IMG/VR virus record: IMGVR_UViG_3300031998_000057
Location: 8,532 to 72,531 of that record
From: a virus
Taxonomy: Duplodnaviria; Caudoviricetes
Length of the DNA stretch: 64,000 bases
Reading direction: 5' to 3' (one strand)
A program made the position numbers and the translations under genes. Numbering within the stretch: the first letter of the stretch is position 1; the number at the start of each line of letters is the position of its first letter. This document shows positions 1,580 through 17,205 of the stretch, in pieces. The notes beneath the pieces were generated by a model, which was given only the letters and a program-made list of their open reading frames with translations, was not told the DNA's origin and ran no database searches.

Positions 1580-1778
1580 ACGCCGCGCAACCAGTCATCC
1601 CGCCAACCTTCTTCACCCACTTGCACCGAAAGCAGCAGTAACGGCAGATGTAATGCCCGCGCTTCTTCGGACACTCCCGCACCAATCCCTCGTGCCATTC
1701 ATTCCCACACGCTTCACAGACCATCCGATGTGCGAAAACCTTCGCCTGCTTCTTCGCCATCCAATAGCCAACCCCCAT
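1560..1778 (-). CDS. small Cys-rich (zinc-finger-like) protein
   Basis: CEAC, CPKK, CRYCCFRC motifs; RBS AAGGGA; TATAAT at 1798-1803 upstream. Confidence 0.6.
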   Translation of the reverse strand: MGVGYWMAKKQAKVFAHRMVCEACGNEWHEGLVRECPKKRGHYICRYCCFRCKWVKKVGGMTGCAAFERKEG

Positions 1779-2747
1779 TTCCCTTGTCCTGTTATTGATT
1801 ATACTCAGCCTTTTTTACACACCCATAATCTGCCCCACACCTAACGCCCACCCGCTCCCTCGCCCCTATATACCTAAAAGCGCCCTGCCATCAACCCGGC
1901 AAGGCGCTCCTTTTCATCTGTAAACATACCCCCATACCCCACCAACTCAAAAAGGATATTTTTTATAAGCCCTAAAATCGGCTTTACACGCGCTTTGCAC
2001 TTTTCAGACGCTAAAACCCACGGCAGACAAATCGAAAACGCAGGAGGGCATTGAAAACCACACGACAGACGCTGCTGTAATGCAATGCGGCAACGCAAAT
2101 GCGATTGTGCGGAATGACGCAGGGAATTGAGCGCGGAAATGAGCTGCGAGGTGGCAGGCTATTTTGCGAATAATTGAGGATGGAAGCGGAAAGGCAAAAG
2201 CCGAATAATTGAGGAGCGGAATGAGCTACGCGCCGGAGGCGCGTCCTGGCGCGGCGGCTAACTGAAAAGGTGGGGGGCTGTGTTGCGATTATTGCCTATA
2301 ATCGAAACATGAGCGCGGCAAACGCGGAGCGGGAGCGGGAGCGGCGCGGCTGATGCTCTGCGGCTGAGCTGGGCGCGGCATGATGCGCGGCGTGGTATCA
2401 AGGGAACACCGGCGGTGGGGTGATGGTTTCCGTTTCGCGGGTTTCCGCCTCTTTCGGTTTTCTGGCAAAAGGGGCTGCGGGTTTTCGCTCTGCTGGCGGA
2501 TGGGCTGCGGGGCTGCGGCTGCTGATGCGGGTCCTGGCTCGGCTCGTTTTCGCTGGCTTCCGCTGCTTCACGGTTGCGGGGCTTCCGCTATAATCCGCGC
2601 TATTATAATATCGACGCCGGGAGCATATCGCGCGCGCGCGAGGGCGGAGCGGCTGCGGGGGCTTGGGCGGGGCTGCGGGCGGGCATAAAGCAAGCCCGCC
2701 GGGGTTTTATTCCGGCGGGCTGTGGTGGGCTGCTGCGTGGTGGGCGT

Positions 2748-3503
2748 TTATTTGGCGGCGGCGTATCTCTCGCGGATGGCCTTAATACGCTTGTCGACGG
2801 CCTGACGGCTGAGGTTGACGGCGGGCGCAATGCGGCGGGCGCTGTAGCCTGCGCCCAGGGCGGCGACGATCCGCAAGTCGATATCGTCACGGCAGGCGCG
2901 GGTGATGCTGTCGCGGATGATGGCGGCGGCCTCCGGGCCGGGGGCAATGGGTTCCGCCGTTCCGCGGGCGCTGATGTCGATTACATCAAGCTCTTGGCCT
3001 TCTTCCGTGACGGTGTGCCGCAGGGCGCTGGCGTTCCGCTTCTCCGCTTCCCTGATGGCCTTTGCCGCTGCGACGATGGCGCGGCTTGTCATTCGGGCCA
3101 GGCTCATGTGCTGCTTGTCGGGGTTATCAAAATAGGCGGTATACAGCCTGATATACGCTTCATGAGCGACGGCGGCGAGGTCGTCAGCAAGGCGGGCCGG
3201 GCAAACCCAGGTGAAAACGGGGGCCGCCGGGACCCGCTGACCGTTTTTAATGATCGTGCGGGCGTCGTCGATCCTGTACTCATGGCCGGTCATGCGCATG
3301 AGATAGTCATACCGCTCGTTTTCCGGCCAGCTTTCGAAAATCTCGCGGGGGCTGCGGCCGTCCTCCTCCCAGGCGAGGCGGAGCGCGGCGGCCAGGTTGA
3401 CGCGGTAGCAGTCGCCCGGATGGGCGGCGGTGATCCTGCGGGCGATGGTATGAGCGCGGGCCATAACGCGGGCGGCGCGGGCGGTGTTGGTAGTCTTTTC
3501 CAT
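2748..3503 (-). CDS. ECF-type sigma-70-like factor
   Basis: Region-2-like DDLAAVAHEAYIRLY..SLARMTSRAIVAAAKAIREAEKR; linker PGPEAAAIIRD; region-4 HTH DLRIVAALGAGYSARRIAPAVNLSRQAVDKRIKAIRERY; RBS AAAGGAG. Confidence 0.7.
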   Translation of the reverse strand: MEKTTNTARAARVMARAHTIARRITAAHPGDCYRVNLAAALRLAWEEDGRSPREIFESWPENERYDYLMRMTGHEYRIDDARTIIKNGQRVPAAPVFTWVCPARLADDLAAVAHEAYIRLYTAYFDNPDKQHMSLARMTSRAIVAAAKAIREAEKRNASALRHTVTEEGQELDVIDISARGTAEPIAPGPEAAAIIRDSITRACRDDIDLRIVAALGAGYSARRIAPAVNLSRQAVDKRIKAIRERYAAAK

Positions 3504-3569
3504 TTTTTATAACTCCTTTCGATGTGGGCGGCGGCGCTTCTGGCGCTGCCGTATCTTGATTACACTATG

Positions 3570-3598
3570 ATTATACCACGCTATCATTACATATTCAA
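3570..3598 (-). promoter_or_regulatory. sigmaA-type promoter of the sigma-like gene
   Basis: TTGAAT(3598-3593)-N17-TATAAT(3575-3570), preceded by TGG (extended -10). Confidence 0.8.
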
Positions 3599-3736
3599 GC
3601 ATTTTTTCGGCATTTTCCGAAAAAATTTTGCTCGGCGGTAGCCAAAACCGTTTTCCCCGGTTTGGTGTAGGCGAGGACGAAAAACGACGGGCGGCGGCTG
3701 CGGCCCGGAAACAAAAAATCGAACGGAGGCAATACA

Positions 3737-4075
3737 ATGAATAAAATCAACGGCGCGGAGCTTATCGAAAACACAAGCGCGGCGGGCCGGAGGGCGGCGC
3801 GGGCTGCGGCGGCTGCGGCTGGCGCGGGCGGCTGGTCCTCTATCTGGGGCGCGTACAAGGAGCCCAGCGCGGAAAAGGTCCGGGCCTGGCGTGGCCTGGA
3901 GGCGCTGGCGGAGGCGCTGAACGCGGACAGCCTGCGGATCACGGCGGCGAACACTTTCAATTTCTCGGCGCTGATCCGTTTCCGCGTTGACGGTCGGGCG
4001 GCTGTCGGCTATATCACGCGGGACCACCGGCGCTTCGCCTGGGCGGAGGATGCGCCCGCGGCGGCGGCGGCCTGA
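3737..4075 (+). CDS. hypothetical early protein, Ala-rich
   Basis: RBS GGAGG; directly after motif copy 1. Confidence 0.75.
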   Translation: MNKINGAELIENTSAAGRRAARAAAAAAGAGGWSSIWGAYKEPSAEKVRAWRGLEALAEALNADSLRITAANTFNFSALIRFRVDGRAAVGYITRDHRRFAWAEDAPAAAAA

Positions 4076-4246
4076 ACAGGCAACGGAGCCCTGGCGGGGA
4101 TCGGGATTTTTCCCGGTCCCCGTCTTTTTTTATTTGACGGGGCCGGGGCCGCGTGATAAAATATTTGAACAGGCGAAAAATTTTTTTCGGCGCTGGTAGC
4201 CAAAAGCCGCCGCGCCGGTTTGGTGATTGAAAAGGAGGCTGAACAC

Positions 4247-4525
4247 ATGGCGAAAGCGAGCGCGGCACGGATCAAGGCCAATCAGCGGTGGGACGCGCGA
4301 GCCTATGACAAGGCGCTGCTGCGGCTGCCGAAGGGAGCACTGGAACAGCTTAAAGCGGCGGCGTCTGAGGAGGGCGAAAGCCTGAACAGATATATTTTGA
4401 TTGCCCTGGAGCGGCGGAGCGGCTTAAAGCTCACGCTTGACGGGGAGCTGCCTGGGCCGGGGCCGCGCGGCCCGCGAAAAGACTACAGAACAGCGGCGAA
4501 AAAGACCGGGGACGGCGAAAGCTGA
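4247..4525 (+). CDS. ribbon-helix-helix (Arc-like) DNA-binding protein
   Basis: KANQRWDARAYDKALLRLPKGALEQLKAAASEEGESLNRYI pattern; RBS AAAGGAGG; ATG at 4247. Confidence 0.7.
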   Translation: MAKASAARIKANQRWDARAYDKALLRLPKGALEQLKAAASEEGESLNRYILIALERRSGLKLTLDGELPGPGPRGPRKDYRTAAKKTGDGES

Positions 4526-4628
4526 TCCCCGGAAATTTTTTTGTTTCGCGGTAGCCAAAACGAAAAACCCGTGTTTGGTGTAATCGGGAAAACAAAACCC
4601 GATAATAAATTGAAGGGAGCTATAAAAC

Positions 4629-4913
4629 ATGGCAATAACAAACAATATGATTATTGAAAATGCCCGCGCAAACCTTATTTCCGATGGGCTGCTTGATCCG
4701 GCGCATGAAATCCATACTTTCCAGCGTTGGAAAGCGCTGGGCTACAGCGTGAAAAAGGGAGAACACGCGATAGCAAAATTCTCGATCTGGAAGTACGGCG
4801 AGCGGCGGAAAAAGGCCGAGGACGGCGGCGAGGAGGAGATCGAGACCGGCGGCTGCTTTATGAAAACGAGCGCGTTCTTTTCGACGGCGCAAGTGGAGCC
4901 GCTGAAAGCGTGA
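4629..4913 (+). CDS. ArdC N-terminal-like (ssDNA-binding, anti-restriction family) protein
   Basis: HTFQRWKALGYSVKKGEHAI motif resembles the ArdC-N signature. Confidence 0.65.
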   Translation: MAITNNMIIENARANLISDGLLDPAHEIHTFQRWKALGYSVKKGEHAIAKFSIWKYGERRKKAEDGGEEEIETGGCFMKTSAFFSTAQVEPLKA

Positions 4914-5330
4914 GACGGAGACGGGGCCGGGGGAGCTTTCCCCTGGCCCTTTATTTTTTTGCCCTGACGCGGGGAAATTTTTTTCGGCGCTGGTAGCCGT
5001 TTTGAAAATTCCGCGTTTGGTGTAGGTGAAAGCAAACGAAAGAACAGGAGGCAATAACAATGAAGATTGAACAGACGCAGGCATTCCGTTTAACCGTGGA
5101 TCACATGGTTAAGCTGGGAAACGATCACAAATTTGACAAAGAGTTTCCATTTTCGGAGTTTTTGTCAAGGACTAAGACTCTGCGCGGCGCAGAGTTTGCG
5201 CGCAAGGCGGCTGCAAAAGCGAACCAACGTTTACGCTGCAAACTGTATGTTGCTTGATGCTGGAGACGGGGCTGGGGGATCATTCCCCAGCCCCTTTATT
5301 TTTTGCCCTGGCGCGGAAAATATTTTTCGG
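4914..5330 (+). repeat. near-duplicated ~75-bp terminator/promoter-upstream spacer (about 4914-4987 and 5260-5330)
   Basis: GAGACGGGGC[C/T]GGGGGA..TTCCCC[T/A]G[G/C]CCCTTTATTTTTT..GCCCTG[A/G]CGCGG..AA.T.TTTTTCGG in both; related spacer at about 4085-4190. Confidence 0.8.
5060..5257 (+). CDS. hypothetical early protein
   Basis: RBS AGGAGG; own promoter and terminator. Confidence 0.7.
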   Translation: MKIEQTQAFRLTVDHMVKLGNDHKFDKEFPFSEFLSRTKTLRGAEFARKAAAKANQRLRCKLYVA

Positions 5331-5397
5331 AACAGCTTAATTTTTACGCTTTCGCTGTTTGGTATAGACGAAAGCAAAAACAAGAAGGCAATACACA

Positions 5398-5640
5398 ATG
5401 AAAATGTTTGCAAAAGCCGTTGAGGGAAAAGAGTTTATTTACAGCCGTGAAAGCGCTCACCAGGTAAGCGAGAGAAGCGCAAATATGATTTGCGCGGCGC
5501 TGAACGAAAAGCGCTGGGGGCTAAAAGACGGGCAAATCTGGCACGTCTACGATTGCGAATGGTACGAACAGGAATACACCGGCGCGGCGTATCAATCTTT
5601 TGAACGGCGCAACGGCGGCCTGGTGGAGAGGATAATCTGA
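5398..5640 (+). CDS. hypothetical early protein
   Basis: 80-aa ORF after the degenerate motif copy. Confidence 0.7.
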   Translation: MKMFAKAVEGKEFIYSRESAHQVSERSANMICAALNEKRWGLKDGQIWHVYDCEWYEQEYTGAAYQSFERRNGGLVERII

Positions 5641-5719
5641 ACACACGGAGCGCGGCGGGCCGGGGCAATAATCCCGGCCGGGGCCGCGCCTGAACACAAA
5701 ACGAACGGAGGAACGAAAA

Positions 5720-5884
5720 ATGAAAAATCTGCTGAGCATGATCGGCTTTGTTGCGTTTCTGTCCCTGCTGCCCCTGGGCGGCTGGATTGAGAACGACGGC
5801 GGCCTGCCTGCGCTGCTGACGGCGGCGGCGGTGATCCTTGTGCTGGCCGTGACGGTCTACGCGGCGAACAGGACGAAAAAATAA
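5720..5884 (+). CDS. small two-helix membrane protein (54 aa)
   Basis: Translated by hand: MKNLLSMIGFVAFLSLLPLGGWIENDGGLPALLTAAAVILVLAVTVYAANRTKK; RBS GGAGG. Confidence 0.7.
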   Translation: MKNLLSMIGFVAFLSLLPLGGWIENDGGLPALLTAAAVILVLAVTVYAANRTKK

Positions 5885-5982
5885 TTTCCCGCGTTGGTAG
5901 CCAAAGGCGGCCGCGCCGGTTTGGTGTAATCGGGCGAGGCGATCCCCGCCTGAACACAATACATTGAATGGAGGAACACAAA

Positions 5983-6669
5983 ATGACGCACGAAAAGAGA
6001 TACGAGCTTGTCTGTGAAATGCTGAGAGCCTACGACATGGCGAACGGCTACGATGCCGCGGAGCAAGTAATCAAGAACGCGAGAGAATGGGCCGGGCATG
6101 GTACGCTTCCCTTTTATGGGGCTGCCGCTTCCCTGCTGGTGGAGGCGATGGAGGGCATGAACAAAACAAGGACTGGAACCGCACAGACCGCCGCACTGAA
6201 CAGGATTTACAAATCCGCTTGCAGCATAGCAAGGCGGGGCTTTGATGGCGTTTTCCCGTCTGCTGGGCGCTGGGCGCTCTGCGACGGATACCGCTTTGTG
6301 CGCCTGAACGTCAAGCCTGAGAGCTATCCCGAACGGGAGAGTACAATCAACCTGGAGCAGGCGATCCCGGTGGCGAGCCGCTATTCTGAGACCGTGGAGC
6401 TTCCCACCGTGGCGGAAATCAAGGCGCATCTGGCCGACGTAAAATCCCGCTTTGGGCGCAAGTGGCGCAACTATTCTGAGTCTCACATCGAGGCGCTTCC
6501 CGGCTGGTGGTGCAATCCCGAATACCTGCTGGACATGGTACAGGCGCTTCCCGGCGGAACGGCGCATCTTCCGAAGAACAGCATTTCCCCGCTCTACTAT
6601 GAGAGCCCGGACGGGGATGCCCTGCTGCTTCCCTGCCGTCATCCCGTCACGGCGGCGGCTGCCGCCTGA
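5983..6669 (+). CDS. protein with a C-terminal sliding-clamp (DnaN)-like segment
   Basis: CDGYRFVRL, CNPEYLLDMVQAL and ISPLYYES..DALLLPCR resemble beta-clamp motifs (TDGHRL, FNxxYLLD, LLMPxR). Confidence 0.5.
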   Translation: MTHEKRYELVCEMLRAYDMANGYDAAEQVIKNAREWAGHGTLPFYGAAASLLVEAMEGMNKTRTGTAQTAALNRIYKSACSIARRGFDGVFPSAGRWALCDGYRFVRLNVKPESYPERESTINLEQAIPVASRYSETVELPTVAEIKAHLADVKSRFGRKWRNYSESHIEALPGWWCNPEYLLDMVQALPGGTAHLPKNSISPLYYESPDGDALLLPCRHPVTAAAAA

Positions 6670-6756
6670 GAGAACGTACAAGCCGCGCCGGGCGGGTCCC
6701 GGCGCGGCTGCCCGTCCGAAAATCCAACGGTATAATTCAGAACAGGAGGAAAAGAA

Positions 6757-7167
6757 ATGTTTGAGAATTGGCAATGGGTAATCGGCCCTGAAGGGTATCA
6801 CGGCTTCGCAAAATCAGCGCTGAAGGACGGCGTATGCCCCTATACCGGCAAGACCGCCGCCGACTATGAGGCAGAGGGCTGCACAATCGTTTCGGAAGCG
6901 GAATTTGACCGCATTGCTGCCGAATATGAGCGCAGCTTGACCGATGACTGGAAGGAGATCACGGAGGAACAGTACGAGGACGCGCTGAACGTGCTTCCCC
7001 CGCTGCAATGGTACGGCGGCGGCTTTTTCTGCATGGAGGCATATTTCAGCACCCTGCACAGCTTTTATCAAGAGGTGGACGGTAAATACTTCACTTCCCT
7101 GCAATCCGTCACGACGCCCCGCGCCGATATTATGAACAACCTTATGAAATGGAGGGAAAGCGCATGA
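6757..7167 (+). CDS. DUF1419-like protein
   Basis: EITEEQYEDALNVLPPLQW..FFCME..YQEVDGKYF pattern. Confidence 0.55.
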   Translation: MFENWQWVIGPEGYHGFAKSALKDGVCPYTGKTAADYEAEGCTIVSEAEFDRIAAEYERSLTDDWKEITEEQYEDALNVLPPLQWYGGGFFCMEAYFSTLHSFYQEVDGKYFTSLQSVTTPRADIMNNLMKWRESA

Positions 7168-7340
7168 GCGGCAAACGCTTCCGCCTTTGGGCGCTGCTGC
7201 AAAGCAATTTGGCCCTGAGTGACAAGATAGATCATGCCCGCGATCCTGAACACAAGGCGCGGCTGCAACGGCACTATGACGAGATCGAGGCCGAAATCAA
7301 GATGATCCAAAACGTTTTACAGGAGGAGGTAAACACATGA
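7164..7340 (+). CDS. hypothetical small helical protein
   Basis: ATG at 7164 overlaps the upstream stop; RBS GGAGG. Confidence 0.6.
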   Translation: MSGKRFRLWALLQSNLALSDKIDHARDPEHKARLQRHYDEIEAEIKMIQNVLQEEVNT

Positions 7341-7718
7341 AAACGATCAACGTCAATCCCCCTGGGGGACTCGCAGCGGGAACAGTGGCACAGCGTCGTG
7401 AACATCCTGCGGCGCATGGGCGGCGATATGACCGCCGATGGCCGCGCCGGTCTCTGCGACGAGCTTGACCGCTATATCGACTATGCCGAGGATATGCGGG
7501 AGGAAATCAAGGAACAGCCGGAGCCGGACGGCGCGGAGCAGTGCATGACCGCCGAGGATGCGCTGGCGATCATGGAAAAGCACGTCGGCAACTGGCGCGG
7601 TTTGGAGCAGAAGGCCGCGCAGAACGGCGACTATCACGCCGCGCAGAGCTACGCGGATATGGCCTATGCTGGGGCCGCGCTGAAAGACGAGATCGAGCGC
7701 GAGCTTTATCACGGCTGA
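7337..7718 (+). CDS. hypothetical protein with an apparent +1 frameshift near 7355
   Basis: Strong RBS + ATG at 7337 (MKTINV); the coding frame resumes at 7356 (IPLGDSQREQWHSVVNILRR..). Confidence 0.55.
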
Positions 7719-7733
7719 ACAGGAGGCGACCGC

Positions 7734-7904
7734 ATGAGAATAATCAAGGCGAACATGGAAAACGGCGACTACATCATCACCCGCATCAACGTAGCGCCGG
7801 AAGAGATCGAAAAATACTATATAGGCAAGCCGTACATATACGAGGACCCGAACCGCGGTGAGACCGGGCGGACGCGCTTTGTGAGCGTTGAGTTTTTAGA
7901 TTGA
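7734..7904 (+). CDS. hypothetical protein (56 aa)
   Basis: MRIIKANMENGDYIITRINVAPEEIEKYYIGK..; RBS AGGAGG. Confidence 0.7.
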   Translation: MRIIKANMENGDYIITRINVAPEEIEKYYIGKPYIYEDPNRGETGRTRFVSVEFLD

Positions 7905-7920
7905 AGGAGGAACACAAAAA

Positions 7921-8238
7921 ATGACTATTACGAGAGAGATCAACGGCAGCCCCGTCACGTTCGAGCTTTCGAGCGCCGAGCTTCGCGCCGCCTACTGCGA
8001 ACAGCAAGCGCAGTTTGACCGTGAGGACGTGACGCTGATCCTGGACGAGTACGCCGACGATGGCGAGTCCGGGGAACAGGACTTCATCGACTACTACGGA
8101 GCGCCGATTGCCAAAGCCCACGAGCTTCTGCCGCAGATAGTCGAAAAATACCGCGATATCCGCGACGACGGCGAATGCGCCCTGTCCTGGCGCGAGGCCG
8201 TGGACATGGCATTGGAATATTGGCTGAAGGAGGCTTGA
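7921..8238 (+). CDS. acidic hypothetical protein
   Basis: RBS AAGGAGG; D/E-rich. Confidence 0.75.
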   Translation: MTITREINGSPVTFELSSAELRAAYCEQQAQFDREDVTLILDEYADDGESGEQDFIDYYGAPIAKAHELLPQIVEKYRDIRDDGECALSWREAVDMALEYWLKEA

Positions 8239-8245
8239 GAACACG

Positions 8246-8437
8246 ATGCCGCCTTATGAACAGCTTGCCGCGCAGCTTTGCGGCGCGATCCGAACCTTTT
8301 CCGAGCGCCCGGAGGCATTGGATAACTTTGAAAGCTATCTGTCGTACTGCTTCCCCTGCTGGTGGGAGAAGTGGGTGAACACGCCGGACGGCTTGGCCGC
8401 AGAGCTTGAGCACTTCGCAAACATGGAATTTTCGTGA
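8246..8437 (+). CDS. hypothetical protein
   Basis: 63-aa ORF, aromatic-rich. Confidence 0.65.
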   Translation: MPPYEQLAAQLCGAIRTFSERPEALDNFESYLSYCFPCWWEKWVNTPDGLAAELEHFANMEFS

Positions 8438-8556
8438 ACAGGAGGTAGCCAAAACGCCGCATTACAGTTTGGTGTATGCGGGGCTTGAAACACAGCCCCG
8501 CTTATGCTATGATACTTTATAGGACTTTTGAACACATCGAAAGGAGCAAAACACAC

Positions 8557-8784
8557 ATGAACCGCTACAGTTACAAAGAACTTCGCGCTGCTGCCGTTTC
8601 CCCTACGGCCACGCCGGAGGATATAAATGCCTTTGGGGAATGGTTTGAACTCTACGGCCACGAAAACCCCGACTTCTGGAACGGCGAATATTGGGACGCC
8701 GACGACGGCATGAGGCTTTTCCCCGTCTATACTGAGCCGGACGAGTATGGCGATATGGAGATCGTCGGCTATGAATTTAGATAG
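8557..8784 (+). CDS. acidic hypothetical protein (75 aa)
   Basis: RBS AAAGGAG, ATG 8557; 17 D/E vs 5 K/R. Confidence 0.75.
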   Translation: MNRYSYKELRAAAVSPTATPEDINAFGEWFELYGHENPDFWNGEYWDADDGMRLFPVYTEPDEYGDMEIVGYEFR

Positions 8785-8796
8785 GAGGCGCGAAGA

Positions 8797-9135
8797 ATGA
8801 CAATTTCGGAATTGAAGAGTGAACTTCGGATTGCCCCTGACGATTATTGGGAAGTTATGGAAGCGGAGCTTCCGCTGCCGGAAACGCTTGCACAATTCGC
8901 CGAGGCATGGAATAATCCCGCGCTGAACAGTGAAGGAACTTTTGCAGATAACCTTGCGGACGGCGCTGTGCAGGACGGAAAGCCCTTTTTCGGAGCCTAC
9001 ACATCGATCACGGTCGATTATGATGACTATGACAAGTATTTTTGCGACGGCTGTGCGCCTAATGAAATCAGAGACACATTTCCCAGGGCGTTAATTGCAA
9101 TAGAGCCGCAGAAATCGGAGGAGGCCGCCGAATGA
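8797..9135 (+). CDS. acidic hypothetical protein
   Basis: RBS AGGAGG; 24 D/E vs 7 K/R in 112 aa. Confidence 0.75.
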   Translation: MTISELKSELRIAPDDYWEVMEAELPLPETLAQFAEAWNNPALNSEGTFADNLADGAVQDGKPFFGAYTSITVDYDDYDKYFCDGCAPNEIRDTFPRALIAIEPQKSEEAAE

Positions 9136-9539
9136 CACACGAGAACAGTGGTATTATCGACTTCAACGCCAAGCGCGGCGTCCGGTCGGAGGACTTCGCG
9201 GACATCGGCGACTACGCCGCCGCGAAAGCGGAGGAGAACGCTGCCTTTTGCGGCAAGGCGCTGAACAGCGAAAACCTTGATCGTCTGAACACGATCCGCG
9301 ACTGCTGCGCGAAAATTGCCGAACTGGACGCGGACGTGCGTTTTATAAATTTCCCGCCGGACAGCAGGGAGCGCAACGGCATCATGCAGATCAACGTCCC
9401 CGGCCTGTATATGGCTTTCGACAAGCGCATTACGCGGCTTTTTTCCCGCATCTTCGCCGAGGCAGACGATTTTGGCGTCGTGGAAACGGACGACGGCCTG
9501 AACTTCACCTTCGGCGTGAGGGACATTTGGGACGATTAA
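9132..9539 (+). CDS. hypothetical protein
   Basis: ATGA overlap with the upstream gene. Confidence 0.7.
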   Translation: MTHENSGIIDFNAKRGVRSEDFADIGDYAAAKAEENAAFCGKALNSENLDRLNTIRDCCAKIAELDADVRFINFPPDSRERNGIMQINVPGLYMAFDKRITRLFSRIFAEADDFGVVETDDGLNFTFGVRDIWDD

Positions 9540-9655
9540 AAAAAGAACAGACCCGGTAGCCGTTTTCGGAAAAGCGGGTTTGGTGTATACAGAGGCAAGC
9601 GCGAGGCAAACGCCCCGCGCTTTTCTTGTGCCTAAAATTGAAAGGAGAATACACA

Positions 9656-10888
9656 ATGTACTATCAGATCAACCGCGAGACTCAAAAGCTGGAGCTTATC
9701 TTCGACAAGGCTGAATATCAGGCATTGCCCGACGCGGACAAGCGTGAGATCAAAAGCAATTTCCTTTTCGCCCGCAGCATCGGCGGCTGGGTGAGCCGCG
9801 CAAAGTGGCCGAACACGGGCCGAGCGGAGCGCGTGGCGCAGCGCCTGGGCGCTGAGAACAGGGGCAAGACCGGCGAGGCCCTGACCTTTGCCGAGCAGCA
9901 GGAGCGCAAGGCGGAACGCGCCGAGGCCCGCGCCGAACGCATGGACGCGAGATCGGACAGGGCCGCTGCCGAGGGGACGCGCCTGCAAAAGCCCATCGAG
10001 GATATGCGCGGCGATATTGCGTTCTTCACGCAGCCGAACATCAACAGCAGCGCGGGCCGCGCCTTTACGAACAGGCGGAACAGGATGTTTGCCGCCTATG
10101 AGCGCGGCTGGGAGGAGTTCAAGAAATCGGAATACTATGCGGAACGCGCTGAGACTGCCCGCCGCACCGCCGCCGAAGCGAAAATGCCCACCGACAAGGG
10201 CTTTTGCGAGCGCCGCATTGCCGAGGCGGAAAAGTCCATTCGGGAACAGAAGAAGCAGATCGACACCTACCGCAAGGCCATCGAGCAGACCGAAAAGGGT
10301 CTGGAATACGTCGGCGGCCCCGGCGAGTGGTACTGCCATTACACCCCCGACTACACCGACAAGCTCCGCGAGTGGCTTGAAAACGCCGAGGAGCGCATGG
10401 AACAGGCCATGAGCAAGGCCATTTACTACCGCGAGGCCCTTGAAGCCCTGGGCGGCATCCAGTACAGCCGCGAAAACGTCAAACCCGGCTACGTCGTCCT
10501 CGTCGGCTCCCACCTGGGCGAAGTCGATTCCTGCGGCCCGAAGAACATCACCTATAAGGTAACGACCTGCGGCACGACCTTTTACCTGAAGGCCAGCTAC
10601 GGTGAAATCACCGAGATCGTCAGTGCCGAGGAGCGCAAGCCTGAACAGCACCCGTTCAAGGTGGGCGAGGTTTTCGAGCCGATCCTGTGGGACGGCGACC
10701 GCTTCACAAAAACCCCCGTGGAGATCGTCAAGGCCACGGAGAAAAGCGTCACGGTTCAGAACAGGAACACCGGCGAGAAGTACGTCCGCAAGCCTCAGAA
10801 GTACGACGGAGGCCGCAGCGAAGCCGCCGAGTGGGTATTCTATATCGACTCCGACTCCTACCGTTCCCGCTGCGCCAAACCCGCCTGA
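9656..10888 (+). CDS. DUF3560-family protein
   Basis: ERKAERAEARAERM..GDIAFFTQPNINSSAGRAFTNRRNRM..YYAERA..ERRI pattern. Confidence 0.75.
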   Translation: MYYQINRETQKLELIFDKAEYQALPDADKREIKSNFLFARSIGGWVSRAKWPNTGRAERVAQRLGAENRGKTGEALTFAEQQERKAERAEARAERMDARSDRAAAEGTRLQKPIEDMRGDIAFFTQPNINSSAGRAFTNRRNRMFAAYERGWEEFKKSEYYAERAETARRTAAEAKMPTDKGFCERRIAEAEKSIREQKKQIDTYRKAIEQTEKGLEYVGGPGEWYCHYTPDYTDKLREWLENAEERMEQAMSKAIYYREALEALGGIQYSRENVKPGYVVLVGSHLGEVDSCGPKNITYKVTTCGTTFYLKASYGEITEIVSAEERKPEQHPFKVGEVFEPILWDGDRFTKTPVEIVKATEKSVTVQNRNTGEKYVRKPQKYDGGRSEAAEWVFYIDSDSYRSRCAKPA

Positions 10889-11000
10889 CCCGTCCAAAAA
10901 AGAAAAATGATAATAAATTGCTGGAGCGGTAGCCATATCCCGCTCCCGCGGTTTGGTAACAGTGACCGCGCAAGCGGAACACATTGAAAGGAGTTACAGC

Positions 11001-11213
11001 ATGAACACGACGACAAAACTGACCTACATCGGCATGGATTCCTGGTCGCGCCCCGTCTACAAGGACGAAGCCGGGACCCTTTGGAAAGACACAGACCCCC
11101 GTCGAGACCGCGCTCCCGACCTTTGCTCCGCTATGTTCAACGCCTTCGACGGCGAGCCGAACAATCCTTTTCACGGCATCCCCGAATTTATCCCCGAACG
11201 GATCACATGGTAA
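11001..11213 (+). CDS. hypothetical protein
   Basis: YIGMDSWSRPVYKDEAGTLWKD..FDGEP; RBS AAAGGAG. Confidence 0.75.
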   Translation: MNTTTKLTYIGMDSWSRPVYKDEAGTLWKDTDPRRDRAPDLCSAMFNAFDGEPNNPFHGIPEFIPERITW

Positions 11214-11230
11214 ATTGAAAGGAGAACACA

Positions 11231-11602
11231 ATGAGCACCATCACTTTTACAGCGAAGCCCCTCACGAAGCCGGAGGGCATGACGATCAAGGCCGAGCTTG
11301 CCTGGGCCTATTTCGATTTCAATAACGGCGGTTGGCTGGCCGCGAAGATGGGCGACGATTCCATCGTCATCACCGACGAATCCGCCGATTTTTTCAACGG
11401 GCAGACTTTCCCCGACGAGGACGCCTTTGCCGAGTGGTTGGAACAGGACGCCGCCATGCAGCTTGACGATCATCCCTATGAGTTTTTGTCAGACAGCGGC
11501 GCGATCCTGCCCGCCCTGCTGACCGAGGCCGTCCAGCGTGAAATCCTGAACGCCATCAATCAAATCGACGACACGAGAAAGGAGAACACCCCCGATGCTT
11601 AA
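11231..11602 (+). CDS. acidic hypothetical protein
   Basis: 24 D/E vs 7 K/R in 123 aa; RBS AAAGGAG. Confidence 0.75.
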   Translation: MSTITFTAKPLTKPEGMTIKAELAWAYFDFNNGGWLAAKMGDDSIVITDESADFFNGQTFPDEDAFAEWLEQDAAMQLDDHPYEFLSDSGAILPALLTEAVQREILNAINQIDDTRKENTPDA

Positions 11603-12143
11603 CGACAACACGCTCCACGACGAAATCGCCTTTCAGGGCAAAGCCCTCACGGTGGACACCTGCTTCCTGGGCGAATACATGAACAATCCCTATGAGACCA
11701 TGGCCCTGCTGCCCGGCGGCAAAGAGATCGAGTGCGTCCGCTCCGCCACGGAGGAGGACGCCCGCCGCGTCCACGCCATCATGCTCAAAAAGTACAGGGA
11801 ACAGGCCGCGCCCCTCACGGGGAAGTATTTGAAGCTGAAGCTGGACCTGCTGGCCGCCTATGCCGAGACGGAACACATCGAACAGACCGAGGACGGCGGC
11901 ACCTGCAACTTTGATGCGCCGGTCCTGCACCTGAACCGCTGGGACGGGAACAAGATCAAACAGGCGGCAAAGGAGGCGGGCGGCAGCGCTTTCAAATGGA
12001 CATGGGGCAGCCGCGTCATGGGCTGGGTATTCTCCCCGCGCAGCTCCGGCCAGGGCAACCGCCGCAGCCGCCGCGCCGAGGCCATCAGTGCCGCTCTCAA
12101 AGCCAAAGGCTACAACACCGGTATGTATTACGCTATGGACTGA
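11595..12143 (+). CDS. hypothetical phage protein
   Basis: 182 aa; DGGTCNFD and GQGNRRSRRAEA motifs. Confidence 0.75.
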   Translation: MLNDNTLHDEIAFQGKALTVDTCFLGEYMNNPYETMALLPGGKEIECVRSATEEDARRVHAIMLKKYREQAAPLTGKYLKLKLDLLAAYAETEHIEQTEDGGTCNFDAPVLHLNRWDGNKIKQAAKEAGGSAFKWTWGSRVMGWVFSPRSSGQGNRRSRRAEAISAALKAKGYNTGMYYAMD

Positions 12144-12247
12144 ACATAAAAAAGCCGAACGCTCGGTAGCCATTCCCCCTATCGGGCGTTTGGTATAACT
12201 GAACGCGGCGGCGACTGCCGCACATACATTGAAAGGAGTAAAACATA

Positions 12248-12874
12248 ATGAACAGAACCATCAAACTGAGCGACAAGCTCACGGGCGCTCTCGAAGCCCA
12301 CGACATCTACGTTACGTCCGCTGACGAATACAACGGCGGCATCGACGTAGAATTGGAATGGTACAGCCCCGCAGGAGAGGATTTTGTTTTCACCTTCCAC
12401 TTTGACGGCTCCGCTTCCGATTTCGTTGACAACTTCCGCAGCTACGCGGAGGACTTCGACCCCGACGAACACGCCGAAATGTGGGTTGAACACCGCGGCA
12501 AAAATGGCTGCCCGAACTCTATCCGTGACCTGATCGACGACGCGGACGCCATCAATGACTTTCTGAACAGCGTCGCCCACGATCTGATTGACGCATTGGA
12601 GCGTGGCGAGCTGTCCAACGCCTACCTGCTGACCGAGGAACAGATCAGGGACGATTGGGAAGCCGCGCTCGAAAGCGATATGGACTACAGCGAGATCGCC
12701 CAGGCTATCGAATGGGGCTTCACCCGCGAGGACATTATCACGCTCATGGAGCTGCACCGTGAGAACAAGCACCGCCGCAAGATCGAGGACCTTTTGACCG
12801 ACTGCAACTATCACACGGAATGTAAAGCCTGGTCCGCGGGCGATTACACGTTCCGCGACGTATGGGAGGAGTGA
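12248..12874 (+). CDS. acidic hypothetical protein
   Basis: 208 aa, D/E-rich; RBS AAAGGAG. Confidence 0.75.
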   Translation: MNRTIKLSDKLTGALEAHDIYVTSADEYNGGIDVELEWYSPAGEDFVFTFHFDGSASDFVDNFRSYAEDFDPDEHAEMWVEHRGKNGCPNSIRDLIDDADAINDFLNSVAHDLIDALERGELSNAYLLTEEQIRDDWEAALESDMDYSEIAQAIEWGFTREDIITLMELHRENKHRRKIEDLLTDCNYHTECKAWSAGDYTFRDVWEE

Positions 12875-12962
12875 CCGCTGGGGCGGCCTTTGGCCGCCCG
12901 TCCCCCGTCCGAAAAATCACTGCTATAATCAAAACACAAACACATGAAAGGAGCTATAACCA

Positions 12963-13352
12963 ATGCCATTCACGCAAGATGAGCTTTTCATTCTTTCCGA
13001 CGCGCTTCTTCTCACCATCAGCGAAAACAGCGAAGCCATGAAGCATATCACGAGCCAGGACGCAATCGAAGCGCTGAAAAAATACCTGACCGTCCTGCGC
13101 GACCTCAACAGCAAGGTTTGTTCTCTCAGCGAGTCTCAGCTTGCCGCCGACTTCCGTGCGCAGGAACAGCCCCGCAAAACGCCCCGCGTCGTCATTCACG
13201 TTGAGGACGGCATGGTGCAGAACGTTTACGCCGATGCCGACGTGGAAGTGGACGTCTGCGATTTGGACGATGACACCCCGGATGGTTTTGACAGCAGCCG
13301 CACACGGCTCCACGCGGTTGTTACCTGTGGCGTGTACAAGCCCGTGTATTGA
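12963..13352 (+). CDS. hypothetical protein
   Basis: RBS AAAGGAG; TATAAT at 12924. Confidence 0.7.
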   Translation: MPFTQDELFILSDALLLTISENSEAMKHITSQDAIEALKKYLTVLRDLNSKVCSLSESQLAADFRAQEQPRKTPRVVIHVEDGMVQNVYADADVEVDVCDLDDDTPDGFDSSRTRLHAVVTCGVYKPVY

Positions 13353-13371
13353 GAAAGGATGAACAGACCGC

Positions 13372-13761
13372 ATGAACACCTATATGGAAGTCTATGAGCT
13401 TTTTAGCTCGGACGGTCTGCGTCCCTGCTGCGGTGAAACTCCGCTTTTTAAGGCGTTCGATTTTTCGAGCGGCACACTGTTTGCCGTAGAATGCCGCAAA
13501 AACGGCCACATCCACAACACGGGGCTTCACAAGACCCGCGAGGCCGCCGTCAAACTCTGGAACAGCGCGAAAGAAACGACCCACGGACTGCTTCTCCCGA
13601 CGACGGCTCTTGTGACCGAGGACGATTACGGCGTTACCCGCTGTGGAGCCTGCGGCGGCGAAATTCTCTGCGGAGACACCGGCGATATGCCGAACTTTTG
13701 CCCCGCCTGCGGGAAAGAATTGGACTATGCACTTTACGAACAGGAGGAACAGCCCACATGA
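13372..13761 (+). CDS. Lar-like (restriction alleviation) zinc-finger protein with an extra zinc ribbon
   Basis: LRPCCGE..VEC..TREAAVKLWN resembles Lar; followed by CGACGG..FCPACG. Confidence 0.55.
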   Translation: MNTYMEVYELFSSDGLRPCCGETPLFKAFDFSSGTLFAVECRKNGHIHNTGLHKTREAAVKLWNSAKETTHGLLLPTTALVTEDDYGVTRCGACGGEILCGDTGDMPNFCPACGKELDYALYEQEEQPT

Positions 13762-13976
13762 TCGACACGAACACCACCTACGGCGTATCTTTTCGCTGCT
13801 ATTTCCCCGATGATGGCGGCACGGCGACGCGCTACAACAGCCATTATCAGTGTCTCCCACTCGACGAGCTGCCGACATGGATCGAGGCGTACCGCTTCAC
13901 GCATCCGAACTGCCTCTCCGTGACGGCAAAGGTCTGGTTCAGCGACTGCGCCGCAAAGCGCGGCGGCGAGGACTGA
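13758..13976 (+). CDS. hypothetical protein (72 aa)
   Basis: Translated by hand MIDTNTTYGVSFRCYF..; RBS AGGAGG; ATGA overlap. Confidence 0.65.
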   Translation: MIDTNTTYGVSFRCYFPDDGGTATRYNSHYQCLPLDELPTWIEAYRFTHPNCLSVTAKVWFSDCAAKRGGED

Positions 13977-14001
13977 ACACGCACATAGAAAGGAGAACAG
14001 C

Positions 14002-14304
14002 ATGGAACAGAACAGGCTTTACACAAGCACGATGTACAAGGCCGTTTCCCCGAAAGATGACTGCGGCCTTGAAAGCCCCCGTGACACCCTCGGGGAGCTG
14101 GTGGACATGATCTCCCGCTTAGAGAGCCGCGCCCAGGAGCAGGGCTATCCCCCGCAGGAATGGCTGATCGTGCGCGTCCGCACGAACACGATCTTCGATG
14201 GGGGCCGCTTCCACTACCGCAGTACGATTGAGGAAGCCGTCGCTCTCTACGGCAAGGACGGCAAGCTGCGCTATTTGAACGGCGAGGAATGGAAAATTGG
14301 CTGA
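14002..14304 (+). CDS. hypothetical protein
   Basis: RBS AAGGAG. Confidence 0.7.
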   Translation: MEQNRLYTSTMYKAVSPKDDCGLESPRDTLGELVDMISRLESRAQEQGYPPQEWLIVRVRTNTIFDGGRFHYRSTIEEAVALYGKDGKLRYLNGEEWKIG

Positions 14305-14323
14305 ACAAAACCGAAAATTCCCC

Positions 14324-14352
14324 TTGCAATATCACTTGATCCGTGGTATACT
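14324..14352 (+). promoter_or_regulatory. sigmaA-type promoter upstream of the second Rep gene
   Basis: TTGCAA(14324)-N17-TATACT(14347), preceded by TGG. Confidence 0.75.
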
Positions 14353-14531
14353 TTTCATAGTGAGTGTTGCAGCACTCGCTTACAAAGCAGTATCGCGGAC
14401 ACGGTACGGCATTATTATCGCCTTTTATGCCCCTGCAAGGGCATTTTAGGGCTATGCTTTGCATAGCAGCAACCGCCGCCTCATGTGTCCGCATGGGGCG
14501 GCGTGTCTTTTATGCAAGGGAGGCAAACAAG

Positions 14532-15500
14532 ATGCCATTTATCCGTGTACCGCAAGACAAAGACTTCTCAATCGTTCCGAACAGCATTTACCGCGACAAT
14601 CGGCTAAATCTTAGGGACATTGGTTTGCTGACCTATCTCCTGCATCTCCCGAATGATTGGGATTTTTCAATCAAAGGCTTGGAGAGCATCATCCCTAACG
14701 ATGGGAGGGACGGCATAGCCGCCAGTTTGAAGAGGATTGAGAACGCCGGGTATCTTCGCCGTGAGCAGATGCGAAACAAGGGCGGCACTCTGGGCGAGGT
14801 CATCTGGACGATTTCAAACGCTCCTTTACCGAAAACGGATTTTCCGTATACGGCTAATCCGAATACGGCTGAACCGAATACGGTTAATCCGACACAACAT
14901 AGAACTAACGGAACAAATAACGAAATTAACCGAGAACAAAAGGACGGCGTATTGCGCTCCGACGAGCGGAGCGACGACGCGGCCCATGATTTGAGTCCCA
15001 TTGTAGTTTCTGAGAGCAAGAAGCGCGGGAAGAAGCGGAACAACTCGTTCACGCCTATCGGGTATACGGAGCAGCTTTTCGGCAAGGACTTTGCCGCCGA
15101 TGCGCTTTCCTTTGTGAATGACTATGTGGAGAAATACTACCCGCAGTACCGTAAAGAACCGCATCCCGTAGTAGACGATGAAGAAAAAGCCGAATGTGCT
15201 TTCAGGGTCCTTTGCTGTGCCGCAGAGCTTGGCGTGAGAACGGCTTTTGTTGAGCAGAGGCTATATCAGGCTGCCATGCGCGAAGCAACGTACAAGCCGC
15301 TCATAAGCAAGGTCACAAGCCCCCGTTCCCTTGGCTATTGGCTTATCAATGACGGTGATATGCAATCCGACAAACTGAACAGCACCCGCTACAGCTTGGA
15401 GATTGGGCCACCGCCGATGGGCAAGCCTATCAACTCGATCACCGTGGCGGCATGGAAAGAAAACACACAGCCGCAAAGCACCCGATACAGACCACAATAA
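14532..15500 (+). CDS. HTH replication initiator (replisome-organiser type)
   Basis: DFSIVPNSIYRDNRLNLRDIGLLTYLLHLPNDWDFS..DGRDGIAASLKRIENAGYLRR; internal P-x-T-x-N repeats. Confidence 0.75.
   Translation: MPFIRVPQDKDFSIVPNSIYRDNRLNLRDIGLLTYLLHLPNDWDFSIKGLESIIPNDGRDGIAASLKRIENAGYLRREQMRNKGGTLGEVIWTISNAPLPKTDFPYTANPNTAEPNTVNPTQHRTNGTNNEINREQKDGVLRSDERSDDAAHDLSPIVVSESKKRGKKRNNSFTPIGYTEQLFGKDFAADALSFVNDYVEKYYPQYRKEPHPVVDDEEKAECAFRVLCCAAELGVRTAFVEQRLYQAAMREATYKPLISKVTSPRSLGYWLINDGDMQSDKLNSTRYSLEIGPPPMGKPINSITVAAWKENTQPQSTRYRPQ
14829..14898 (+). repeat. 15-bp-period iteron-like repeats inside the Rep gene
   Basis: CCGAAAACGG 14829, CCGTATACGG 14844, CCGAATACGG 14859 and 14874, CCGACACAAC 14889. 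Confidence 0.7.
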
Positions 15501-15755
15501 GCAAAGCGCACAACTATCAGTAATTATTAGTCACTGACAGTTACCATCACCATCAGCACCAGCATCAGCATACCCATCAGCAACCACACCCCCAAAAGCA
15601 ACAGCAAACCCAGCGCCACCGCCAACCGAAAGAGGATAGGCAAGGGGATGCAAGGGGGAAGGAAAGGGGAAAGCAAGCGCCGACGCCTTTTTTCGGCGGT
15701 TGGTAGCCGTTTCCGCATCTTCCCCGTTTGGTATAATCGAAAGGAGGCACACACT

Positions 15756-16820
15756 ATGAACACCATCGACCGTTACGACGCTCTGCGCGACCGTTGGCTC
15801 CGCATGGCGAAGCGAAACAACCTCACCGGCACCACGCTCCGCGCTTATGAGTCCGTCACGGGCCTGCTGCGGGACTTCTTGCAATCCCGCATGGAACAGG
15901 GTATAATCAAGGAAGAACAGGAATACGTCAGCTTCGACGATATTCAAGCGTGGATCGACGCGATGACCGATGCGGGGAACAAGGTCAGCAGCATCAAGCA
16001 GCGCCTTGTCACGGCGAACCAGTTTTTCACCTTCGCCACGAAGCCCTACGTCCCCGCAGAACTGCGTTATGAGCTGTCCCCCGTATCTCCCGACTTCTAT
16101 CCGAAAGTCCCCACAGAGAACATCCCGGAAGCCCTGACGGACGAGGAAATCACCGAGCTTTGGAAGTATGAGCGGAAGTACAAGGCCACGGACGCAGGCT
16201 TCGCCCGTAACTATGCCATCGTCGCCCTCATCCTCACCACGGGTCTGCGGAACAAGGAAGTGCTCGATCTCAACCTGGACAGCATCGACCTTGCCAACGG
16301 CGAGGTTTGGGTACACAACGGCAAGGGCCGCAAGGACCGCGTCGTGGATATGGACTCCGGCGGTCTCTGCGCCGCCGCCCTGGAAAACTATCTCCTGCAC
16401 GGAGACAGACCGCAGAACATCCCAAACTCCGCTCCCCTCTTCGGCACGACAGCGGAACACAGCTTTGGCAAGCCTCAGACCACCGAGGGCGCGGAGAAAT
16501 GGCACAGAGGCACGGGCGCATGGCTGTCCGCCCTGATCGAACGCCACGTTTTCAATCAGACGGGACGGCACGACTGCCGCAGCCATGACCTCCGGCACAC
16601 CTACGCCCGCTTGATGCTGAACAGCACGGGCAACCTTGCCGAGCTGCAAAGCTCCCTTGGACATTCCGATCCCAAGATTTCCGAGCGCTACTCTGGTAGA
16701 CTGCTTCAGCGTCGGAGGAGGGAACAGACCCGCGCCGTCCTCGCCGCCCGCGACGAAGCCGCCGCCCGACTCCGCGCCAGGAACAGGCAGGAACAGACCG
16801 TCATCGAACTTTACGCTTAA
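15756..16820 (+). CDS. XerC/D-like tyrosine recombinase (second recombinase)
   Basis: Full catalytic set: GLRNKE, GKGRK, HDLRH, LGH, ERY; RBS AAAGGAGG. Confidence 0.9.
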   Translation: MNTIDRYDALRDRWLRMAKRNNLTGTTLRAYESVTGLLRDFLQSRMEQGIIKEEQEYVSFDDIQAWIDAMTDAGNKVSSIKQRLVTANQFFTFATKPYVPAELRYELSPVSPDFYPKVPTENIPEALTDEEITELWKYERKYKATDAGFARNYAIVALILTTGLRNKEVLDLNLDSIDLANGEVWVHNGKGRKDRVVDMDSGGLCAAALENYLLHGDRPQNIPNSAPLFGTTAEHSFGKPQTTEGAEKWHRGTGAWLSALIERHVFNQTGRHDCRSHDLRHTYARLMLNSTGNLAELQSSLGHSDPKISERYSGRLLQRRRREQTRAVLAARDEAAARLRARNRQEQTVIELYA

Positions 16821-16835
16821 AGGAGGAGGAACACA

Positions 16836-17177
16836 ATGGCAAAAGAATTTAAGCAAATGTGGATAACCCAGCTCGGCTCCGTATTCCCCGCAATGGTTAA
16901 GCCGTGGAAGCAAAGCTGGCGCTCGCAGAACAGCGATCTGATATACCGTCCTGAGTGCGTCCACGCTTGGGACGATTTGACAGACGAGCAGAAAAAGAAA
17001 GCATTGGAGGCCGTCTACGCCATCAGATTGGACGCCGCGAATATGACCGAGGGCAAAGACCCCGGCCTCGCGGAACAGGTCAAAAATTGGAAGCGTCAGG
17101 CAGCGGAAAATTTCACCCTCGCCCGTGAACGCATCGACAACGGCGAACCCATAGACGAGCCGAACCCTTACGATTGA
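16836..17177 (+). CDS. hypothetical protein
   Basis: RBS AAAGGAGG. Confidence 0.7.
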   Translation: MAKEFKQMWITQLGSVFPAMVKPWKQSWRSQNSDLIYRPECVHAWDDLTDEQKKKALEAVYAIRLDAANMTEGKDPGLAEQVKNWKRQAAENFTLARERIDNGEPIDEPNPYD

Positions 17178-17205
17178 AGCATTGACTTGAAAAGGAGGAA
17201 CACAC

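Follow-up and report, generated by a model that had tools for sequence, protein, structure and literature searches.

A probable phage-encoded ECF-like sigma factor and its array of ten promoter-like sites in the accessory arm of a phage genome

What reads an array of ten identical bipartite sites that stand in one arm of a phage genome, each just ahead of a gene? The question is raised by a 64,000-nt stretch of tailed-phage DNA, hereafter the window, which comprises bases 8532-72531 of the 72,531-bp IMG/VR virus record IMGVR_UViG_3300031998_000057, estimated to be 92% complete. Between 3637 and 15732 the + strand of the window carries GGTAGCC-N16/17-GTTTGGT ten times without a mismatch, and divergent from the array lies a gene (2748..3503, - strand) for a 251-residue protein, P0001, that resembles extracytoplasmic function (ECF) sigma factors. 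An original prediction, made from the letters alone, held that this protein reads the array, and Pfam and PDB profile matches, predicted folds, covariation over 13 phages and a prediction made in advance all support it: P0001 is probably a phage-encoded group-4 (ECF-like) sigma factor that directs the host core RNA polymerase to ten private promoters.

The array is sharply defined. The spacer measures 16 nt in nine of the ten copies and 17 nt in the copy at 15702, and GGTAGCC-N(15-18)-GTTTGGT did not occur once in 100 dinucleotide-preserving shuffles of the window. No further copy is present on either strand of the whole 72,531-bp record. Sites with one or two mismatches were not found and those with three are about as frequent as in the shuffles (17-35), so that the array consists of ten perfect sites without a graded tail. 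All ten copies are intergenic, with an ATG preceded by a GGAGG-type Shine-Dalgarno (SD) sequence 23-105 nt downstream. The exact coordinates of the copies, their absence outside the 3.6-15.8 kb block and their position just upstream of a ribosome-binding site and start codon, all proposed initially by eye, are therefore borne out, and over the whole genome the motif is confined to the intergenic gaps of one arm rather than scattered through coding or other regions. Aligned with one another, the copies further share an A/T-rich tract ~8-20 nt 5′ of GGTAGCC and a weaker RTA (R, purine) 3′ of GTTTGGT, while the invariant bases of the downstream part are GTTTGGT itself. A scan of IMG/VR with the exact motif gave solely single chance occurrences among the matches listed.

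The protein opposite the array has the domain organization of a small sigma factor. P0001 begins with an N-terminal helical hairpin (residues 1-48), followed by a sigma2-like region (~50-160) with a β-hairpin insert, a linker, and a sigma4 helix-turn-helix (HTH) domain (188-251). The Pfam model Sigma70_ECF matches P0001 with an E-value of 4.2e-6, above the curated cut-off, aligning residues 110-248 with profile positions 50-180; among 80 family members the same model matches 43 and Sigma70_r4_2 matches 26. A profile built from the 80 members in turn matches AlgU, CnrH and sigmaE from region 2.1-2.2 through region 4 (E 2e-4 to 9e-4), and the helix AVAHEAYIRLY is aligned to the region 2.2 helix DVAQEAFIKAY of AlgU. 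In the AlphaFold (AF2) model of P0001, which has a predicted local distance difference test score (pLDDT) of 93, residues 188-251 superpose on region 4 of CnrH, SigK, SigW and sigmaE with Z-scores of 7.3-9.0 and root-mean-square deviations of 1.6-2.9 Å, and nearly all Foldseek matches of the full-length protein are sigma factors, with weak E-values. When residues 45-165 were modelled separately (pLDDT 92.5), all ten best matches among 48,161 chains proved to be sigma region-2 domains, the best structures being those of T4 gp55, Mycobacterium tuberculosis SigH, SigI6, SigB, RpoE, pro-sigmaK, ShbA, AlgU and sigmaE; the Z-scores reach just 5.2-6.3, so that the support for this domain is moderate. 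On the predicted models, residues ~50-160 are read as a genuine but divergent sigma2 domain with a β-hairpin insert and an extra helical hairpin in front. The hairpin itself has a recognizable motif (AH..TR...PGD.YR..FAAAL), which is duplicated in one relative (P0013, L129:10001-10789) and absent from another (P0014), and it thus acts as a separable module.

The gene would be transcribed from a sigmaA-type promoter at 3570..3598 (- strand), TTGAAT-N17-TATAAT with an extended -10 TG and a consensus match of 10/12, and in relatives this position is taken by TTGACT-N17-TATAAT or TAGTAT. It would probably be monocistronic, since a probable terminator, a hairpin (10/10 complementary) with a T-rich tail, lies directly 3′ of the stop codon at 2693..2721 (- strand). 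The proposed sigma2 plus sigma4 protein with a canonical sigmaA promoter is borne out as to the gene with its promoter and is supported, through the Sigma70_ECF match, the ECF profile matches and the predicted sigma2 and sigma4 folds, as to the product of 2748-3503. No array site is directed at the sigma gene in the window phage, which consequently has no autoregulatory promoter of this class. No anti-sigma gene adjoins the sigma gene, no neighbouring open reading frame (ORF) is conserved, and no conserved anti-sigma candidate was found: small ORFs convergent to the relatives' sigma genes align neither with one another nor with the window ORF at 2380-2688.

P0001 belongs to a family of ~120 sequence clusters at 50% identity. 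An exhaustive search at E≤1e-3 returned homologues in 122 representative clusters, all of them unnamed and metagenomic, and there is no PHROG or NCBIfam family for P0001 and no family-specific Pfam model. DNA and protein searches, including tblastn, gave no match in 50,697 GenBank phage records; an alignment-based pattern and tblastn, a search of limited sensitivity, gave no relative in 185,579 species genomes. In IMG/VR a scan with the single protein yielded nothing and an alignment-based scan one locus.

The contigs carrying homologues, where enough flank was available, allow the locus to be compared between phages. Twelve related phage contigs (L numbers below) share the layout, with the sigma gene divergent from a block of at least 10 kb of small genes that mostly belong to no family, and the expected co-occurrence of motif and sigma homologue is found, as each of the 12 has an array of its own. 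Within each phage the spacing of the two boxes is constant and the sites lie in the intergenic gaps of the block; altogether 70 sites are on the block strand and one on the opposite strand, against none in 100 shuffles of any locus. The boxes themselves differ. GGTAGCC/GTTTGGT of the window phage is replaced by GGTAGTC/GTTTGGT in L135 and by GGTTAAT/GTTTGGT in L127, while GGTTTCC is combined with G-N-TTGGT in L129, L138, L140 and L142, with GATTACT in L131 and with GGCGTTATA in L133. The other pairs are GGTTGCC/GGCGTATA in L139, GGTTACA/GTTAGGT in L132, TGTAACA/GGTATATATA in L141 and TGCATAA/GGGACTAC in L136. The sites of L132 were spotted by eye, and dyad enumeration on L132 and L134 returned compositional noise alone. 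L134 and L137, whose sigmas are 32-33% identical, yielded no array; L137 has little upstream DNA.

Two elements are common to all the phages, namely the upstream (UP)-like tract, with an A/T content of 69% against a background of 46%, and an A/T-rich RTAAG after the -10 heptamer; both are expected to be shared if they are read by host components and not by the variable sigma. At least 6 nt separate the downstream box from the SD sequence at every site, and 6-8 nt at many, which fits a start site just past RTAAG and places the boxes at about -35 to -29 and -12 to -6. One relative, L140, has a sigma-type promoter, GGTTTCC-N16-GGTTGGT at 9891-9920 (+), that lies inside the divergent first gene and faces the sigma gene, a position that suggests positive autoregulation there.

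The variation between the 13 phages provides the strongest link between protein and array, in that the upstream box follows the sigma4 recognition helix and the downstream box follows a sigma2 helix. First, the helix [HR]TA[IV]NKR accompanies GGTTTCC in six sigmas whose identity is only 28-57% over sigma2 and 33-49% over the N-terminal part. The helices SRQAVDKR and SHQAVDKR go with GGTAGCC and GGTAGTC, SHQALSKR with GGTTGCC, SAPAVTKR with GGTTAAT, SRKTVNAR with GGTTACA, TRSNVAQR with TGTAACA and IQSTVSRR with TGCATAA. Next, the two domains can change separately: P0004 shares 89-91% identity with P0002 and P0003 over sigma2 and only 44-53% over sigma4, and its phage has retained GTTTGGT together with a different -35 box. 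As for the sigma2 domain, an SRA[VI] helix occurs in eight sigmas, seven of which use TTGGT or TAGGT. GGCG(T)TATA is found in two phages that have the sigma2 motif AV[LM]RAARY in common despite differing -35 boxes, which indicates that each box assorts with its domain; the SRA[VI] helix is also missing from the sigmas of the GGTATATATA and GGGACTAC phages. Finally, GGTTTCC was predicted for P0006 from its helix before the DNA had been seen, and the contig then gave GGTTTCC-N16-GATTGGT; L131 and L133 followed as two further cases of GGTTTCC with [HR]TA[IV]NKR. That P0001 supplies the specificity for the upstream box can be regarded as very probable.

Whether it does so as a sigma factor requires the evidence to be weighed. 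The motif array, the protein fold and family, the conserved layout and the covariation of boxes with domains are shown by the analysis. As in group-4 sigmas, a sigma4 HTH, whose recognition helix covaries with the -35 box, is combined with a sigma2 domain containing a region 2.2-like helix and with bipartite promoters of ~16-17-bp spacing; as with other phage sigmas, the gene is found in a phage genome behind a host-type sigmaA-like promoter, and the promoter class is restricted to one phage arm. Traits that are typical of ECF sigmas without being obligatory, AAC in the -35 box, CGT in the -10 box, a co-transcribed anti-sigma and autoregulation, are absent from the window phage. A number of observations weigh against a sigma factor. 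Only in L141 and L139 do the boxes carry the usual ECF signatures AAC and CGT, and the stretch TGGTATAA in most relatives is similar to an extended -10 element. The structural matches of sigma2 are modest (Z 5-6), Foldseek with this domain alone gave no match below E 0.29, and the aromatic F/W-rich region 2.3 motif seen in AlgU-type ECF sigmas is missing from the family. For sigma2 the correlation is not perfect, as L131 has an SRAV-type sigma2 helix together with the box GATTACT. In addition, the promoter patterns of the related phages were picked by eye and then counted with one fixed pattern per locus, and the covariation counts come from related sequences that are not fully independent, a concern that is reduced by the sigma4 swaps within one clade and by the advance prediction.

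The similarity to an extended -10 element leads to the alternative that survives best, in which P0001 is a promoter-specific activator and not a sigma. Its HTH would occupy the upstream box at about -41 to -35, as a class II activator or a MotA-like substitute for the -35 contact, and recruit the host sigmaA holoenzyme, which would read TGGTRTAAT as an extended -10. The stretch TGGTATAA(G/T) is indeed present in several copies of the array and in most relatives, and TGGTATAAT likewise in the sigmaA promoter of the sigma gene itself; that the upstream box covaries with the HTH is equally compatible with an activator, and LuxR/NarL-type HTH proteins match the C-terminal domain too. However, in the sigmaA register seven of the ten window sites have G in place of the near-invariant A at -11, every L139 site has G at -7 and lacks the TG, and the invariant letters are GTTTGGT rather than the hexamer. 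The tightest sites, in L127, L138, L129 and L140, have TATATG or TATAAG 1-2 nt before GGAGG, where an mRNA begun by sigmaA ~7 nt beyond the hexamer would lack the SD sequence; with GTTTGGT at about -12 to -6, the start falls just ahead of the SD sequence and GGTAGCC is at -35 to -29. A functional sigmaA -10 with A at -11 and T at -7 at the proper start distance, which a MotA-like or class II activator would use, is accordingly not seen. An activator also leaves unexplained why P0001 carries a sigma2-like domain with a region 2.2-like helix and why the downstream box shifts together with that domain, to GGGACTAC, GGCGTATA or GGTATATATA. Base content and promoter-to-SD geometry thus disfavour the activator box on extended -10 sigmaA promoters that had been raised as the alternative from the start, and an activator seems an unlikely, if the least unlikely, substitute for a sigma factor.

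Much less probable is that a host ECF sigma reads the promoters and that the phage gene is unrelated to them or a mere copy of the host factor. The general architecture is ECF-like and the L141 promoter TGTAAC-N16-GGTATAT is near common bacterial ECF promoters, but the boxes follow each phage's own helix in 13 phages, even where close sigmas differ in sigma4 alone, and neither the species genomes, within the sensitivity of that search, nor NCBIfam hold a counterpart of P0001. Equally improbable is that the repeats serve mainly in recombination or as cassette boundaries, used by the Xer-like recombinase or in homologous exchange, or are repressor operators, as might be proposed from the 14 perfectly conserved positions, the mosaic cargo with an orphan promoter of another phage's type and the tyrosine recombinase kept in the distal block: their spacer is free in sequence and constant in length, their orientation is strictly that of the genes, their placement relative to the SD sequence is fixed, a UP-like tract lies upstream, and the two halves covary with different sigma domains. 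Any exchange at the conserved promoters could be a by-product rather than a rival function.

For the sigma factor reading, the following sequence of events can be proposed, in which core polymerase binding, the exact start sites, the timing and the roles of the cargo genes are deduced parts. The host sigmaA holoenzyme would transcribe the monocistronic sigma gene from its canonical promoter, and P0001 would then bind the host core RNA polymerase and steer it to the ten private promoters; the consensus matches suggest such a cascade from host sigmaA to phage sigma. Each promoter would comprise an A/T-rich UP-like tract, the -35 heptamer GGTAGCC contacted by sigma4, a fixed 16-bp spacer, the -10 heptamer GTTTGGT contacted by sigma2, and an A/T-rich RTAAG-like stretch, with the start site ~5-7 nt beyond the heptamer. 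The one-way promoters would divide the divergent arm of 14 kb into some ten short transcription units, of which several have terminators at their boundaries.

The regulated arm (3737..17177, + strand) contains ~27 mostly small genes and is mosaic between related phages, as for most of its genes the related blocks hold no homologue and those that are shared lie scattered. Promoter 1 (3637..3666) is predicted to serve the gene at 3737-4075, promoter 2 (4195..4224) the gene at 4247-4525, whose SD sequence begins 7 nt past the downstream box, and promoter 3 (4550..4579) the gene at 4629-4913. Promoter 4 (4992..5021), with a strong terminator on its 5′ side at 4923-4950, precedes the gene at 5060-5257, promoter 5 (5896..5925) the genes from 5983-6669 on, and promoter 6 (8444..8473) the genes at 8557-9539. 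Promoter 7 (9555..9584) has a conserved hairpin in the leader of its gene at 9656-10888, promoter 8 (10928..10957) would drive the genes at 11001-12143 and promoter 9 (12165..12194) the gene at 12248-12874. Promoter 10 (15702..15732), the copy with the N17 spacer, would serve a recombinase gene at 15756-16820 and a further gene at 16836-17177. Three of the cassettes end in strong terminators directly 5′ of the next promoter.

In searches of Pfam, PHROG and NCBIfam, the arm gave a DUF3560 gene (9656-10888, +), a faint ArdC-N-like match (4629-4913, +), a weak Lar-like match (13372-13761), a DnaD/replication-initiator-like gene (14364-15500, +) and, under promoter 10, an Xer/integron-integrase-like tyrosine recombinase (15756-16820, +), a match well below the family cut-offs. 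A recombinase is likewise present in the distal block of L129 and L136, and the window phage has a separate integrase at 60507-61811; the recombinase under promoter 10 might act in dimer resolution, cassette exchange or inversion. PADLOC models matched none of ten block proteins. The earlier picture of ~30 small accessory and anti-defence genes hence holds for the small accessory genes, and anti-defence is merely hinted at by the ArdC-N-like, weak Lar-like and DUF3560 matches. To call a sigma dedicated to an accessory block unusual was an overstatement, because genes that require a newly made sigma are delayed-early or middle by definition and accessory sigmas of mobile elements are known. The sigma is also not the sole driver of the arm, which contains several sigmaA-like promoters and CCGTCC-N13-TATAAT sites at 6712 and 12905. 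The latter class has three exact copies in the window, at 6712-6736 (+), 12905-12929 (+) and 533-557 (-), where 0.02 would be expected.

The leaders of the arm transcripts have features of their own. The DUF3560 leader (9585-9655) contains a GC-rich hairpin with a run of T behind it, GCGCGAGGC-AAAC-GCCCCGCGC-TTTT, and similar leaders recur at L127:3444-3554 (-) and in L138, L141 and L132. Most other arm leaders start with a stem-loop a few nt past the predicted start site; such stem-loops could be 5′ stabilisers or attenuators.

One further site in the arm departs from the pattern. At 5335..5363 (+), 5′ of the gene at 5398-5640, stands an orphan eleventh, degenerate site, GCTTAAT-N15-GTTTGGT, whose box and spacing match the L127 type (GGTTAAT-N15) and not the window phage's own sigma, and the leader behind it is similar to the leader of an L127 cassette. 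Since box, spacing and leader are all of L127 type, the site suggests a cassette brought in along with a foreign promoter.

The arm is set apart from the rest of the genome. The virus record carries terminase, portal, tail, integrase and RecT modules; a lysogeny/replication module (integrase 60507-61811, YqaJ, RecT, DnaB_2/Lin1244 and an IstB-like loader) and the structural genes lie away from the arm on the opposite strand, which makes the sigma arm a separate accessory region. The phage is temperate and from the cattle gut, its probable source being the metagenome of one bovine gut sample with two DNA runs, and the sigma is found here in temperate gut or rumen phages whose hosts are probably Firmicutes. 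Behind the sigma gene, 1780-2747 (~970 nt) has no credible ORF, is G-rich on the + strand and contains degenerate GCGG/CTGCGG-type repeats, and a similar gene-free stretch is found behind the sigma gene in relatives. Within it, a palindrome, TGTTGCGATTAT-N5-ATAATCGAAACA (2281-2309), belongs to a patch that is also conserved in L135, L142, L133 and L138; an operator, an origin and the promoter region of the leftward operon are its possible roles. That operon includes a tRNA-Leu(CAA) gene at 174-251 (-), on which ARAGORN and Rfam agree; over window positions 1-18500, Rfam gave nothing but one tRNA. About 1.3 kb left of the window start the operon encodes a second sigma-related protein of 238 residues, with Pfam matches to Sigma70_r4 and RNA_pol_A_CTD, along with an SNF2 helicase, methyltransferases, Mom, Lar and dUTPase, and a similar gene occurs in L137. 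As all sigma-dependent promoters have the UP-like tract, a link between these tracts and the domain of the 238-residue protein that resembles the C-terminal domain of the polymerase alpha subunit is conceivable.

Taken more widely, the comparison of the 13 phages tentatively suggests, at a confidence well short of that for P0001 itself, an undescribed family of temperate-phage sigmas in which domain swapping has contributed to the diversification of sigma4 and sigma2 into seven or more -35 and about five -10 specificities, with each phage's hypervariable accessory arm on an orthogonal private channel. If this is true, cassettes that move would keep their own promoter and stay silent until the box matches the sigma, as the orphan site at 5335-5363 may illustrate, and the sigma-promoter code would block or filter gene exchange and insulate each phage from co-infecting relatives. 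It would also constitute a natural, readable code between sigma4 helix and DNA, and the matched helix and box variants form a specificity table that could yield orthogonal sigma-promoter pairs for Gram-positive synthetic biology. The family is an uncharacterised addition to the short list of phage-encoded sigmas. Its regulon in the window phage is a 14-kb mosaic arm of small genes and not an essential middle/late programme; such arms are the usual hunting ground for anti-defence and host-takeover genes, and the promoters thus give a sequence-based marker of such cargo in related phages.

Several known systems resemble parts of this arrangement. In bacterial group-4 ECF sigmas, such as Escherichia coli sigmaE, Pseudomonas aeruginosa AlgU, M. 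tuberculosis SigH and Bacillus subtilis SigW, sigma2 and sigma4 are likewise joined without sigma3 and promoters have a ~16-bp spacer, and these proteins provide the best profile and structure matches. In contrast to them, the phage family has an extra N-terminal extension of ~50-100 residues and the sigma2 β-hairpin insert, the window phage has neither an adjacent anti-sigma gene nor an autoregulatory promoter, and the boxes are mostly without AAC/CGT. Small divergent sigmas of the TcdR/BotR/TetR/UviA type are carried by clostridial phages, plasmids and pathogenicity loci, where they drive accessory genes from a few toxin or bacteriocin promoters, as opposed to the array of ten or more cassettes here, and P0001 has no match to them in Pfam or NCBIfam. 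In the hyperplastic regions of T4-type phages, promoter-early stem-loop cassettes consist of small accessory ORFs with their own conserved promoter and a stem-loop or terminator, an arrangement that favours shuffling. Their promoters are read by host sigma70, whereas those described here would be private to the phage sigma, and a moved cassette can therefore arrive with a mismatched box, as at 5335-5363.

Among phage-encoded sigmas, a close counterpart in mechanism is the system of phiEco32 gp36 (with gp79) and the related phage 7-11, in which a distant sigma homologue made after early transcription by host sigma70 redirects the core polymerase to private promoters, the -10 region being read by its N-terminal and the -35 region by its C-terminal domain (PMC12276001; PMC4331800). 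The gp36 complex (9m7y_F) is among the structural matches of P0001, although the two have no detectable sequence relationship, as judged by the lack of a PHROG match, and the likeness is one of mechanism alone. The phiEco32 protein drives essential middle/late genes of a lytic phage from promoters with mainly a single AATGTA element at about -11.5 and requires gp79, whereas the regulon here is the mosaic accessory arm of a temperate phage, the promoters are bipartite and a gp79-like partner was not found. A cascade from host sigmaA through a phage sigma to a private promoter class is likewise known from gp28 and gp34 of the Firmicute phage SPO1 (PMC9429907), which differ in serving the essential middle/late programme of a lytic phage and show no homology to P0001 in tblastn searches of the GenBank phages. 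The strategy of bringing one's own sigma is thus already known, while the sigma family itself is undescribed and is distinguished from gp36, phage 7-11 and the SPO1 sigmas by the N-terminal extension, the temperate phage setting, the bipartite promoter, the mosaic regulon and the diversified sigma-promoter pairs.

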